From Escherichia coli (GTDB taxonomy: Bacteria > Pseudomonadota > Gammaproteobacteria > Enterobacterales > Enterobacteriaceae), in assembly GCF_003334335.1 (NCBI RefSeq), contig NZ_QOWQ01000087.1: DNA of 2,991 bases; one strand, written 5' to 3'. Shown in pieces: positions 272-2,938 of the stretch. A model generated the notes under the pieces. That model was given only the letters and a program-made list of their open reading frames with translations. It searched no databases and had not been told where the DNA came from. Position 1 is the stretch's first letter. The number at the start of each line of letters is the position of its first letter. The translations under genes were made by a program, and so were the position numbers.

Positions 272-697
272 TCAATGCACGACAACAGCATTACCAGGCT
301 GACCACCACTGTTAGTCAGGGTGCCCCAGGCGATCGCCGCTGCGACAAAATCATCCACATCTTTCACCAGCCGATCCCTCCGTTCGACGATCTCACGGTA
401 ATATTCAGAGCTGTGACTGCGCATACGGGCCACCAGCAGAGGCGGCATTGCCTTTTCGATCGCCGGTAACAGAGCCTGAATTTTTTCAACAGCATCAGGG
501 GTGTCTTTATCCAGCCAACGGAAAATTTTCTGGGTATTACGAGCCAGGGCTTCCGGATGGCTGTCGTCGTACAGTTCCGGGAACGTCATTCCCAGCTCGA
601 AATACGCTTTGGTAATTTTCGCAGCCGGTACTTTTTCGCCGTCCGGATGCGCCCAGACATTCATCGCCATGCGGATGTGTTCATGCTTGATTTTCAT
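272..697 (-). CDS. ydaT: YdaT-family protein (historically annotated as toxin YdaT; reported as a CII-like regulator in Rac-type prophages)
   Basis: 141-aa ORF. AGGAG lies 8 nt upstream of ATG at 697..695. N-terminus MKIKHEHI... and the length match YdaT as I recall it. Its start overlaps the 3' end of the upstream Cro-like gene by 17 nt, the typical ydaS-ydaT arrangement. Confidence 0.7.
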   Translation of the reverse strand: MKIKHEHIRMAMNVWAHPDGEKVPAAKITKAYFELGMTFPELYDDSHPEALARNTQKIFRWLDKDTPDAVEKIQALLPAIEKAMPPLLVARMRSHSSEYYREIVERRDRLVKDVDDFVAAAIAWGTLTNSGGQPGNAVVVH

Positions 698-962
698 GAA
701 TCAAGCTCCTAGAAAGTGGTTGTGTTAACGTTTTGGTATCTTCCAGCTCGGGCCAAATATTCATCCAATCAAAAGGCCTTAGTTGCTGACGTGTAACTTC
801 ACCATTACTGGCTCGCTCAATAAGGACACATAACGATGCCCCTAACACTTGACCTTTACTCAATGCTTTTCTTAGATAACCGATGCTGGTATCACACTCG
901 CATGCAAACATACGCTGTTCATCTGACGAAAGAGAATTGAGAAATATTCTTAATTCTTCCAT
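681..962 (-). CDS. Cro-like HTH regulator of the YdaS/COG4197 type, first gene of the rightward-equivalent early operon
   Basis: 93-aa ORF. AAGGAG (973..968, minus strand) lies 5 nt upstream of ATG at 962..960. The protein has a C-terminal motif ...QQLRPFDWMNIWPEL... that I associate with the YdaS/Cro-like family. It is divergent from the repressor gene across a 100-bp operator-bearing spacer. Confidence 0.75.
   Translation of the reverse strand: MEELRIFLNSLSSDEQRMFACECDTSIGYLRKALSKGQVLGASLCVLIERASNGEVTRQQLRPFDWMNIWPELEDTKTLTQPLSRSLIHENQA
686..705. promoter_or_regulatory. Perfect inverted repeat CTTGATT-N6-AATCAAG centred on the ydaT-like start codon; candidate protein-binding dyad
   Basis: Sequence cttgatt ttcatg aatcaag at 686-705 has 7-bp perfect arms and a 6-bp spacer. 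It overlaps the ydaT ATG (695-697, minus strand) and sits next to its RBS. I recall a TTGATT-N6-AATCAA site being reported for YdaT-type proteins, but this is from memory and unverified. Confidence 0.4.
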
Positions 963-1062
963 AGCTACTCCTTAGTAAACACAGCAAAGAATACCCGCAG
1001 GTAAACAAAAGTCAATACCCACAGGTTGTTTACCTTGCGGTAATCGCATCTATTATTTACCT
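963..1062. promoter_or_regulatory. Divergent promoter/operator region between the Cro-like and repressor genes, with three TACC-N4-GGTA-type operator sites
   Basis: Sites TACCCGCAGGTA (992-1003), TACCCACAGGTT (1016-1027) and TACCTTGCGGTA (1031-1042). Candidate minus-strand promoter for the Cro-like gene: -35 TTGACT (1015..1010), 16-bp spacer, -10 TATTCT (993..988). Candidate plus-strand promoter for the repressor: -35 around TTGTTTACC (1026-1034), -10 TATTAT (1051-1056) ending 6 nt before the ATG, with no SD, suggesting a leaderless transcript like lambda PRM. Promoter calls are by eye only. Confidence 0.5.
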
Positions 1063-1482
1063 ATGGACAAATATGAATTTAGACGACAGCAACTCATCAA
1101 AATTCGTGATGAGAAATGCGATGGTAAAGCGGTTAACGTGGCCAGAAAGATCGGGCGCGAGCCTTCTTATGTATCAAGAATGTTGTACCCAGAGGGGAAA
1201 AAGGGAAAAAAACGGATCGCTGATGATATGGTGGAGATTATCGAAGAGTCCTTTGGGTTACCCCGGGGATGGATGGATGGTATCGTTTCATCATCAACGA
1301 ACACAGCCTCCAGTTATGAAACAAGGGTTCTAACGCCACGACAACGTATTTTTTTAGATCTCTTAGACGAACTGCCAGAAAGTGAAGCGGATAAATTATT
1401 AAAAACTCTTGAAGAGAAAAAACAGTATTACAATATGATCTACGAAGAAATCCGTAAAAAGAAAGCACAAAACGCATCATAG
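1063..1482 (+). CDS. Prophage CI-type repressor (DicA/RacR-like); N-terminal HTH and C-terminal helical dimerisation-like region
   Basis: 139-aa ORF divergent from the Cro-like gene. The N-terminal half contains the phage-repressor motif ...GKKRIADDMVEIIEESFGLPRGWMDG.... The C-terminal ...LTPRQRIFLDLLDELPESEADKLL... resembles the C-terminus of E. coli DicA as I recall it. No SD precedes the ATG, consistent with a leaderless repressor mRNA. Confidence 0.8.
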   Translation: MDKYEFRRQQLIKIRDEKCDGKAVNVARKIGREPSYVSRMLYPEGKKGKKRIADDMVEIIEESFGLPRGWMDGIVSSSTNTASSYETRVLTPRQRIFLDLLDELPESEADKLLKTLEEKKQYYNMIYEEIRKKKAQNAS

Positions 1483-1524: not shown

Positions 1525-1561
1525 TACCCATAGGTATTTACTTTTTAAATACCTATGGGTA
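1525..1561. promoter_or_regulatory. Perfect 14-bp-arm palindrome carrying two operator-type sites; candidate operator of the downstream early-left promoter and/or bidirectional terminator after the repressor gene
   Basis: Arms 1526-1539 (acccataggtattt) and 1547-1560 (aaatacctatgggt) are exact reverse complements with a 7-nt loop (acttttt). Each arm contains a TACC-N4-GGTA site (1525-1536, 1550-1561) matching the motif found three times in the 963-1062 region. The stem is followed by a T-rich tract, atccttcttttc. Location 43 bp after the repressor stop and about 190 bp before the next ORF. Confidence 0.5.
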
Positions 1562-1746
1562 TCCTTCTTTTCATACCAACCCACCCCGCCCCACAGAATG
1601 CAGGGCAATACTTCGAGTTACCCGGCAGTGGTCAGGGGTTAAGTAGCCAGCCCGAGGCGTATGAACATGACGGCGGGAACACTTTGTATAACAGCGCAGC
1701 AGGTTTTTGTTCCGCTCCCCCGGCGTTAAGGGGAAATGAGGTCAAC

Positions 1747-1899
1747 ATGGATACTATCGATCTTGGCAACAGCGAATCTCTGGTATGCGGCGTGTTTCCC
1801 AACCAGGACGGCACGTTTACCGCGATGACGTATACCAAAAGTAAAACGTTTAAAACCGAAGCTGGCGCGCATCGCTGGTTAGCAAGAAACTCCGACTGA
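1747..1899 (+). CDS. Small 50-aa protein in the position of ydfA/ydaF in Qin/Rac
   Basis: GAGG (1738-1741) lies 5 nt upstream of ATG 1747. Product is MDTIDLGNSESLVCGVFPNQDGTFTAMTYTKSKTFKTEAGAHRWLARNSD. Size and position (first gene after the repressor, same strand, upstream of dicF) match ydfA/ydaF (about 51 aa); family assignment is from memory only. The 114-aa ORF in the track (1555..1899) is an RBS-less extension starting inside the palindrome. Confidence 0.5.
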   Translation: MDTIDLGNSESLVCGVFPNQDGTFTAMTYTKSKTFKTEAGAHRWLARNSD

Positions 1900-1910
1900 T
1901 GAGGTTGACG

Positions 1911-2312
1911 ATGGAATTTAAAGATTTACCAGTACCATTCCAGGAAATGGCATCTAATGTGGTTCGCTCTCAACTGGCGACTCTTGACCTGAGTACTGTA
2001 GAAAAGGAAACCATCGATACTATATCCGGTAACGTGCGTCGTGCCTTTATAGGTCTGTATGAAGAGAAGCGCCTATTCGGCGGACAGAATTCGACTGAAA
2101 ACAAGAATCAAGCAAATGATGAGAAGCTGAAACACATTATCGCCTTACTTTTGGAAGACGCAAAACGTCTACAGCAACTGGAACCAAATGCAGGCACAGA
2201 GGCCCGCATTTGGATTGCCATGAAATCACTCAAATGTGAAAGCAGTGATTATTTCAAAACAACAATTAAAACTACTCAACTTTCGGGAGAGCTACTGAAG
2301 AAATTGCCATAA
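1911..2312 (+). CDS. Hypothetical 133-aa early-operon protein; occupies the span that E. coli K-12 Qin annotates as ydfB plus ydfC
   Basis: GAGG (1901-1904) lies 6 nt upstream of ATG 1911. An alternative in-frame ATG at 1899 overlaps the upstream stop (TGATG) but has no SD. The ORF is uninterrupted to TAA at 2310-2312. No family recognised. Confidence 0.5.
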   Translation: MEFKDLPVPFQEMASNVVRSQLATLDLSTVEKETIDTISGNVRRAFIGLYEEKRLFGGQNSTENKNQANDEKLKHIIALLLEDAKRLQQLEPNAGTEARIWIAMKSLKCESSDYFKTTIKTTQLSGELLKKLP

Positions 2313-2885: not shown

Positions 2886-2938
2886 TTTCTGGTGACGTTT
2901 GGCGGTATCAGTTTTACTCCGTGACTGCTCTGCCACCC
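2886..2938 (+). ncRNA. dicF: DicF small RNA homologue (prophage-encoded ftsZ-targeting sRNA), with its T-run immediately downstream
   Basis: Sequence tttctggtgacgtttggcggtatcagttttactccgtgactgctctgccaccc matches the 53-nt E. coli K-12 DicF as I remember it at 52 of 53 positions (K-12 ...ctgccgccc, here ...ctgccaccc), followed by ttttt. Genomic context fits the Qin order dicA - ydfABC - dicF - dicB: a repressor and small ORFs upstream on the same strand. Confidence 0.7.

Follow-up and report, generated by a model that had tools for sequence, protein, structure and literature searches.

A perfect palindrome behind the repressor gene of a lambdoid Escherichia coli prophage as the probable left operator-promoter of a dicF-dicB operon

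The 37-bp palindrome that follows the repressor gene in the window (the whole 2991-nucleotide stretch of Escherichia coli DNA analysed here) probably represents the left operator-promoter (OL/PL, the equivalent of dicBp) of a lambdoid prophage immunity region. Repressor dimers supplied by the adjacent 139-aa gene would occupy the two sites OL2 and OL1 carried by the arms of the palindrome, and two such dimers, 25 bp apart, would occlude both the −35 and the −10 hexamer and thereby exclude RNA polymerase. The promoter within the palindrome is predicted to start the ydfA-dicF-dicB-exo-xis-int operon near position 1573; a preliminary description of this DNA had treated the palindrome as a combined operator and terminator and had missed that the dicF-operon promoter itself is embedded in it. 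The element was previously unannotated and belongs to a well-known kind (lambdoid OL/PL, dicBp of Qin, PL of mEp043), its design being an ordinary one for lambda-like phages. The features on which this assignment is based are collected in Table 1.

Table 1. Positions of genes, promoter elements and putative operators in the window
Feature	Position	Strand	Remarks
cII-like/YdaT-family gene	272..697	−	Second gene in the rightward (PR-like) operon; phrog_163 'CII-like transcriptional activator', E = 5e-47; RefSeq 'toxin YdaT family protein'
cro/DicC-like regulator gene	681..962	−	Divergent from the repressor gene; phrog_35 (transcription regulation), E = 8e-22; RefSeq 'transcriptional regulator'
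PR-like promoter of the cro-like gene (predicted)	988..1015	−	TTGACT, 16-nt spacer, TATTCT; scan 9/12
OR1-like operator (putative), TACCCGCAGGTA	992..1003	.	Exact motif match; position kept in Salmonella, Serratia, Yersinia and mEp043
OR2-like operator (putative), TACCCACAGGTT	1016..1027	.	One mismatch; adjoins the −35 of the PR-like promoter
PRM-like promoter of the repressor gene (predicted)	1029..1056	+	TTTACC, 16-nt spacer, TATTAT; scan 9/12
OR3-like operator (putative), TACCTTGCGGTA	1031..1042	.	Overlaps the −35 of the repressor promoter
Repressor gene, 139 aa	1063..1482	+	N-terminal cI-type HTH; C-terminal DicA-type helical domain; no S24 peptidase domain
Palindrome	1525..1561	.	OL2 + −35 + OL1, including the first 2 nt of the −10
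Operator OL2 (putative), TACCCATAGGTA	1525..1536	.	Directly abuts the −35; position as in L016, L017, L012 and mEp043
−35 hexamer of PL/dicBp-equivalent promoter (predicted), TTTACT	1537..1542	+	Conserved position
Operator OL1 (putative), TACCTATGGGTA	1550..1561	.	Within the spacer; 2-nt overlap with the −10
−10 hexamer (predicted), TATCCT	1560..1565	+	17-nt spacer to the −35; TATATT or TACACT in relatives, at the same place relative to the operator
T-rich segment, TCCTTCTTTTC	1562..1572	+	Candidate U-tract of read-through RNA; also the promoter's −10/discriminator region
Conserved 5′ leader of the early-left operon	1573..1746	+	Common to immunity types Rac, Qin-like and LexA-type
ydfA-like gene (DUF1391), first of the operon	1747..1899	+	RefSeq annotation; phrog_751
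DicF small RNA	2887..2938	+	Rfam RF00039, 70.1 bits against a gathering score of 48

A prophage present in several E. coli genomes shows 100% identity to the window, and one of EPEC E2348/69 shows 97%. The gene order in the source genome comprises Q, the replication gene P, a DnaT-like/O-like gene and the YdaT/cII-like and cro-like genes (the last two leftward in window coordinates), continued rightward by the repressor gene, ydfA, a hypothetical gene, DicF, dicB (∼190 nt beyond DicF), a DUF1482 gene and the exonuclease, xis-like and integrase genes. From the succession repressor, element, ydfA, dicF, dicB, exo, xis and int, the operon can be recognised as the early-left (PL) operon of a lambdoid prophage, and the palindrome, which separates this operon from the transcription unit of the repressor, occupies the place of OL/PL in lambda and of dicBp in Qin. 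The proposed presence of dicF in the downstream operon was confirmed by the RF00039 match on the same strand; both at gathering and at permissive thresholds DicF was the only Rfam family recovered from the window, with the palindrome giving only meaningless sub-threshold matches to miRNA hairpins. The element would control a copy of dicF and dicB, both inhibitors of cell division.

The inverted repeat is formed by two 16-nt arms, TACCCATAGGTATTTA and TAAATACCTATGGGTA, which are 100% complementary and enclose a 5-nt loop, CTTTT; the limits of the palindrome had thus been placed correctly in the preliminary description, whereas the 14-bp stem and 7-nt loop ascribed to it were not borne out. It starts 43 nt past the repressor stop codon (1480–1482), in accordance with the earlier statement that the hairpin lies just downstream of this gene, and 186 nt upstream of ydfA. 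The predicted RNA fold has a free energy of −22.5 kcal/mol (z = −7.9 against dinucleotide shuffles, none of 200 shuffles being as stable), and the fold of the complementary strand is equally stable. A perfect 16-bp hairpin in 3 kb of DNA is far beyond chance.

Each arm of the palindrome holds one copy of a 12-bp motif, TACC-N4-GGTA (TACCCATAGGTA and TACCTATGGGTA). The earlier view of the arms as inverted copies of an operator was supported by the enrichment of this motif, with the amendment that each arm is a complete 12-bp site and not a half-site. When up to one mismatch was allowed, the window yielded six matches to the motif TACCNNNNGGTA, where 0.70 would be expected, and no shuffle out of 200 attained this number; five of the six fall within two regulatory regions, namely the region between the divergent genes (starting at 992, 1016 and 1031) and the palindrome arms (1525 and 1550). 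OL2 and OL1 are separated by 25 bp from centre to centre, and the placement of OL1 is identical to that of OR1 relative to the PR-like promoter. A further, degenerate copy of the motif was noticed at 1058–1069.

The same motif was present at both the OR and the OL positions in Salmonella loci L016 and L017–19, in Serratia locus L012 and in phage mEp043 (L103), and it was seen at OR in Yersinia loci L013–15, where OL was not located. All of these loci encode repressors that share their N-terminal domain with the repressor of the window, and in L016, L017–19, L012 and mEp043 a pair of motif copies 25–26 bp apart heads the early-left operon. Six loci representing four further immunity types contained no exact TACC-N4-GGTA, these motif-free comparison loci being K-12 Qin, Rac, the L004/L011 type, the LexA-type and the RelBE-carrying type. 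The motif thus tracks the DNA-binding domain of the repressor across loci, a co-variation seen in five genera or phages, and behaves as an operator should. Taken with the enrichment, this strongly supports an operator role of the palindrome arms, from which we infer binding by the cognate repressor.

The repressor (WP_000362153.1, 'hypothetical protein' in RefSeq) matched phrog_5736, 'transcriptional regulator', with E = 6e-70; it had no match in Pfam, and a sequence search against the PDB gave nothing significant. Over its first ∼75–88 residues it shares 65–80% identity with the N-terminal domains of numerous prophage repressors of the S24-peptidase (LexA) family, found in Salmonella, Yersinia, Klebsiella, Pantoea and Edwardsiella; the cI of the functional phage mEp043 is among them. 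Residues 86–136, on the other hand, match the C-terminus of DicA (NF007257, E = 1.9e-5; 24.5 bits against a curated cutoff of 101), and the last 50 residues are almost identical with the L004 repressor's C-terminal domain, L004 belonging to another immunity type. The protein is not DicA proper, as it fails the full-length NF007257 cutoff and has an overall identity to K-12 DicA of 18%. In its AlphaFold model (pLDDT 82.7) a helical HTH domain is connected by a disordered linker to a tail of two helices, and the top Foldseek matches were Rep of phage SPC32H (5d50/5d4z, the best fold match) and Xre-type HTH proteins, all of them weak (E above 0.001). The repressor is thus a domain chimera which shows the recombination of a cI-type DNA-binding domain with a DicA-type non-cleavable tail.

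Repressors controlled by antirepressors, such as SPC32H Rep, the Gifsy repressors and DicA, which is inactivated by the antirepressor Rem (PMC10448788), likewise combine an N-terminal HTH with a helical C-terminal domain and have no cleavage site. Their identity to the repressor of the window is, however, only ∼17–22%, and none of the prophage's genes was identified as an antirepressor.

The candidate PL hexamers, TTTACT and TATCCT with a 17-nt spacer, score 8/12 (4/6 + 4/6) and were not called by a generic promoter scan with a threshold of 9/12. Their placement is nevertheless the same as in the relatives (Table 2): the window, L016, L017, L012 and mEp043 share an identical geometry, with an upstream site, the −35, a spacer of 17–18 nt containing the second site, and the −10 in this order. 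The hexamers of the relatives are better matched (TTGACC/TATATT) than those of the window, and in mEp043 the corresponding stretch was annotated by its depositors as 'putative PL'. The PR-like promoter shares this geometry with the promoter of the palindrome, as the site at 1016–1027 abuts TTGACT and that at 992–1003 occupies the spacer and extends 2 nt into TATTCT. By virtue of the symmetry, the minus strand of the palindrome carries an equally good mirror promoter, TTTAAA and TAAATT separated by 17 nt. The repressor mRNA is probably leaderless, its predicted start being the ATG at 1063.

Table 2. Arrangement of sites and promoter hexamers ahead of the early-left operon in five loci, aligned on the first site
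Locus	Upstream site (site 2)	−35	Spacer holding site 1	−10
Window	TACCCATAGGTA	TTTACT	TTTTAAATACCTATGGG	TATCCT
Salmonella L017	TACCCACAGGTA	TTTACT	TTAATGATTACCTGTAGG	TATATT
Serratia L012	TACCTGTGGGTA	TTGACC	GTAATGTGTACCTATAGG	TATATT
Salmonella L016	TACCCGTGGGTA	TTTACA	AAAAACAATACCCATGGG	TACACT
mEp043	TACCTATAGGTA	TAGACA	ACTGCTTTACCTGTAGG	TATATT

In thousands of E. coli prophages with other immunity types, similarity to the window sets in only at position 1569–1577, and the Rac, Qin-like, LexA-type and RelBE-type loci each possess a clear promoter of their own that ends 8–14 nt before the shared CCCACCCCGC. This homology boundary, together with the type-specific promoters just upstream of it, places the predicted start of the operon transcript near A1573. 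Judged from these alignments, the DNA upstream of ∼1573 is immunity-specific and that downstream of it is the shared leader. In this leader no covariation was found, the sequence being too conserved, and a comparison with HK022-type phages revealed no similarity at blastn sensitivity. With a start near 1573, the hairpin would be absent from the operon's own transcript and thus could form only in read-through RNA originating from the repressor gene.

The arrangement resembles the OL/PL region of lambda in its position behind the repressor transcription unit and ahead of an early-left operon ending in exo-xis-int, in operators that share their motif with OR, in the spacing of adjacent sites (∼24–25 bp), in the overlap of one site with the −10 while another abuts the −35, and in a repressor mRNA that is probably leaderless, as from PRM. 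In lambda, in contrast, OL comprises three 17-bp sites and a distinct intrinsic terminator, T_IMM, follows rexB, whereas the window has two 12-bp sites, no rex genes, no separate terminator and a repressor without the S24 self-cleavage domain. Among lambdoid phages, an OL limited to two repressor sites is already known from 933W (PMC3317979), which differs in its 15-bp operator and its repressor specificity. The comparison with 933W was prompted by the record of mEp043, which likens its cI to that of 933W; the 933W operators were rejected as instances of the motif described here, being a different 15-bp site.

The Qin prophage of K-12 shares with the window the ydfA...dicF-dicB operon, the sequences of leader and ydfA, a short non-cleavable repressor with a homologous C-terminal domain, and the divergent cro-like gene. 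In Qin, DicA has been shown experimentally to repress dicBp, by 22-fold, and both intergenic regions carry predicted operators that overlap the promoter (PMC10448788). The DNA-binding domain is different in Qin, however, with sites of the TGTTAG type and no TACC-N4-GGTA; these sites form no long hairpin, and a separate AU-rich hairpin lies over the dicA stop codon. Phage mEp043 (Aguilavirus) is similar in its operators TACCTATAGGTA and TACCTGTAGGTA, in their 25-bp spacing, in the site/−35/site/−10 order and in the N-terminal domain of its cI (65% identical). It differs in having a cI with an S24 peptidase domain, a separate and strong terminator, AGCCCGCAAAGCGGGCTTTTTT, ahead of OL, an operon headed by N and nutL, and an operator-pair hairpin with a 13-nt loop and no stem extension.

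The preliminary description had further proposed that the palindrome acts as an intrinsic-terminator-like hairpin, so that a single element would both repress and insulate the dicF operon. The operator half of this proposal agrees with the motif enrichment, the co-variation with the DNA-binding domain and the promoter geometry; of the terminator half, only the stable hairpin held. The tail TCCTTCTTTTC is T-rich and is kept in 81 of 86 related loci, but two C residues directly behind its first T interrupt the U-tract UCCUUCUUUU, and its tail score is 1.97, against 3.8–4.4 for three dedicated terminators of sister phages. By a d'Aubenton-Carafa-type discriminant (d'Aubenton-Carafa, 1990), with weight placed on the comparison with sister-phage terminators rather than on the absolute score, the palindrome reached −24, compared with +28, +21 and −0.3 for the dedicated terminators and −25 for the OL pair of mEp043. 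The latter pair thus scores like the palindrome, yet mEp043 has a strong terminator of its own upstream of OL. Furthermore, the stem is unusually long and A+U-rich, only 5–6 of its 16 pairs being G-C, and a generic terminator scan of the window returned three matches against 3.1 expected in shuffles. In part, the T richness behind OL1 stems from the −10 hexamer. Among the experimental transcript 3′ ends in the one EPEC E2348/69 data set that was checked (TRS/RNAtag-seq, PMC10687069), no coordinate near 1,433,3xx–1,433,5xx was found.

Insulation of the operon from repressor-gene transcription is a real need, since DicB and DicF are toxic (PMC10448788). It would more likely be provided by a roadblock of bound repressor, by Rho acting on untranslated C-rich RNA, or by both, with the hairpin and its imperfect U-tract making a modest contribution; in read-through RNA the hairpin would be at best a weak accessory terminator, a pause site or a 3′-end stabiliser. 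The account that we tentatively prefer, though at somewhat less than even confidence, is that the operators give rise to the hairpin as a by-product and that insulation is achieved by repressor bound at OL2/OL1, Rho-dependent termination, or both. The inverted symmetry can largely be explained by the sites themselves, because each is near-palindromic with a core alternating between pyrimidine and purine, so that any two of them are nearly complementary and pair by default. Indeed, the OL pairs of all relatives, both those that follow the repressor gene and those that do not, fold as 12–14-bp hairpins (−14 to −24 kcal/mol), and the perfect palindrome is a minority haplotype (see below). The untranslated RNA is rich in C and poor in G (C making up 31% and G 10% of 1483–1524; 18 C versus 2 G over 1560–1599), although an excess of C over G is a loose indicator of a Rho-loading site, and both Rho action and the roadblock are themselves conjectural. 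What operator and promoter needs leave unexplained in the window's hairpin is a stem longer by 4 bp (ATTTA/TAAAT) and a loop of 5 nt instead of 10–14 nt, along with an A-tract before the stem and a T-rich run after it, both missing in the relatives.

These surplus features would be compatible with a dual function, in which the operator-promoter would at the same time be an effective intrinsic terminator that ends the repressor mRNA at ∼1568–1571 and replaces a separate terminator of the T_IMM type. We regard this as unlikely, but several observations speak for it. Besides the stability of the fold and the difference between the 16-bp stem and 5-nt loop of this lineage and the 12–14 bp and 10–14 nt of its relatives, the palindrome is the only hairpin between repressor gene and promoter in this immunity type (in the 43 + 37 nt that follow the stop codon). 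At the same position mEp043, L005 and L012 carry terminators of the textbook type, significant hairpins are found in L004 and Qin, and lambda has T_IMM (bioRxiv 10.1101/2021.04.19.439022); in addition, read-through into dicF/dicB would be toxic (PMC10448788). Against an effective terminator stand the U-tract broken by CC at positions 2–3, the low tail and discriminant scores, the scarcity of G-C pairs and the chance-level terminator scan, as well as Salmonella L016, in which repressor gene and OL are just as close and the T-rich tail is missing. In a lysogen, moreover, repressor bound at OL2 would be expected to stall polymerase before the hairpin is transcribed.

More doubtful still is the fullest form of such an economy, a trifunctional 37-bp element that would serve as two-site operator, as early-left promoter and as intrinsic terminator or 3′ stabiliser of the leaderless repressor mRNA in place of a T_IMM-type terminator, with read-through into dicF/dicB set by operator occupancy through roadblock and hairpin combined. 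An operator that doubles as terminator would, if true, be a neat economy of design and would leave the view of phage switches unchanged. Finally, a plain bidirectional terminator devoid of any operator role, its resemblance to the control-region motif being coincidental, is highly improbable: a terminator-like pattern was called on both strands and an A-tract and a T-tract flank the stem, but nothing obvious converges on the minus strand, and the motif enrichment, the co-variation with the DNA-binding domain and the promoter geometry kept across genera all contradict it.

Among 86 loci of this immunity type, 13 haplotypes of hairpin and tail were distinguished. A single G:T mismatch (G·U in the plus-strand RNA) is present in 61 loci, the perfect hairpin of the window in 11, and a G-C at the same pair in three. 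The substitution A1561G, within the −10 hexamer, also exists as a natural variant. The stem substitutions fall into eight types, all transitions, six of which keep plus-strand pairing while two give C·A mismatches. Such pairing-neutral changes, including the A-U/G·U/G-C series, would be in line with a terminator hairpin; the 6:2 split is not significant, however, as half of all transitions preserve pairing by chance, and the series falls on positions 5 and 8 of the operator, which are variable in other sites as well, so that operator drift explains it equally well. With so little stem variation, and with its confounding with operator symmetry, constraint on the RNA and constraint on the operator are not separable in these 86 loci.

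The element was detected in 699 of 5426 complete E. coli genomes (∼13%), the exact 61-nt version of the window in 12 of the 699, and it almost always occurs once per genome (1–2 copies, median 1). A dispersed-repeat or REP-like element was rejected on the basis of this copy number and of the prophage setting, which was found wherever the context was examined. Carriers of this immunity type include EPEC E2348/69 and several STEC lineages, and the putative operator TACC-N4-GGTA, the three predicted promoters and the module boundary provide a map for studies of DicF/DicB expression or of prophage induction.

Comparison of the immunity region among related prophages revealed a mosaic organization. 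As seen when the window is set against loci L010 and L011, one and the same immunity module (repressor plus operators) can be joined at ∼1573 to different early-left operons. In some strains, the operon that follows is of the Rac type (ydaF, sieB), and in others it is the ydfA-dicF-dicB operon. As judged from the sequences, this operon swap illustrates recombination exactly at the predicted transcript start.

The early-left operon has a 5′ leader of ∼105–170 nt that is near-invariant among prophages whose repressors are unrelated (Rac, Qin-like, LexA-type and Salmonella), and in an Actinobacillus phage it is still 79% identical. It has a C-rich 5′ end and is predicted to adopt a multi-stem fold, for which no covariation was found; the leader had no match in Rfam and contains no annotated ORF. 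It might represent a regulatory or antitermination-type RNA of these N-less prophages.

Features of the window and their positions (L-numbers denote compared prophage loci; L004 is of another immunity type, L016 is from Salmonella)
Feature	Position	Strand	Remarks
GTGAC(A/G)Y repeats, five to six	16–77 (at 19, 41, 51, 61, 71)		spacing ∼10 bp
PRM-like −10, TATTAT	1051–1056	+	6 nt upstream of the repressor ATG (1063)
Degenerate operator copy, TACCTATGGACA	1058–1069		overlaps the repressor start
5′ leader of the early-left operon	1573–1746 (conservation peak 1580–1680)	+	also in L007 (1500–1668), L004, L005, L006 and L016
133-aa gene in the dicF operon	1911–2312	+	
Small ORF, phrog_18692, unknown function	2272–2556	−	converges on the 133-aa gene

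Natural variants were detected in both elements of the promoter predicted within the palindrome. In two different backgrounds, L010 (E. coli 30EVA2) and L087, the −10 sequence TATCCT has lost its key A and reads TGTCCT, and the −35 sequence TTTACT is changed twice to TTTGCT and once to TCTACT (L026, L038 and L025). These changes may be promoter-down mutations that silence a toxic operon in decaying prophages. Owing to the symmetry of the palindrome, the minus strand of 1525–1572 also shows a promoter-like mirror image (TTTAAA, 17 nt, TAAATT; 8/12) which, if used, would face back into the repressor gene in antisense orientation. As this arrangement is not conserved in relatives, e.g. phage mEp043, it is probably a by-product.

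The repressor, annotated simply as ‘hypothetical protein’ and without a match in a Pfam search, is by its sequence a domain chimera. Its N-terminal HTH domain exhibits 65–80% identity to S24-peptidase cI repressors, including that of mEp043, and its C-terminal domain is common to DicA and near-identical in L004. Since no cleavage domain is present in the protein, its control probably depends on an antirepressor, as that of DicA does on Rem. Because of the short distance between the PRM-like −10 and the repressor ATG, together with the absence of a Shine-Dalgarno sequence before this ATG, the repressor mRNA is probably leaderless, like the lambda cI mRNA transcribed from PRM. Frameshifted repressor genes, read from an alternative ATG at 1073, occur with intact operators in some E. 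coli genomes (L020–L022; proteins P0010 and P0019), which likely harbour decaying prophages.

Further downstream, the minus-strand ORF overlaps the 3′ end of the 133-aa gene by ∼40 nt, and its transcripts would proceed antisense across the dicF operon towards the palindrome. At the other end of the window, the GTGAC(A/G)Y array, which also includes a related GTGACCA at position 30, lies within the DnaT-like/O-like replication gene, towards its 5′ end. The motif occurs six times in the whole window, compared with 1.24 expected, the sixth copy being located at 2892. By their sequence and arrangement the repeats look like putative origin iterons, and their location within an O-like gene resembles that of the lambda ori inside gene O.
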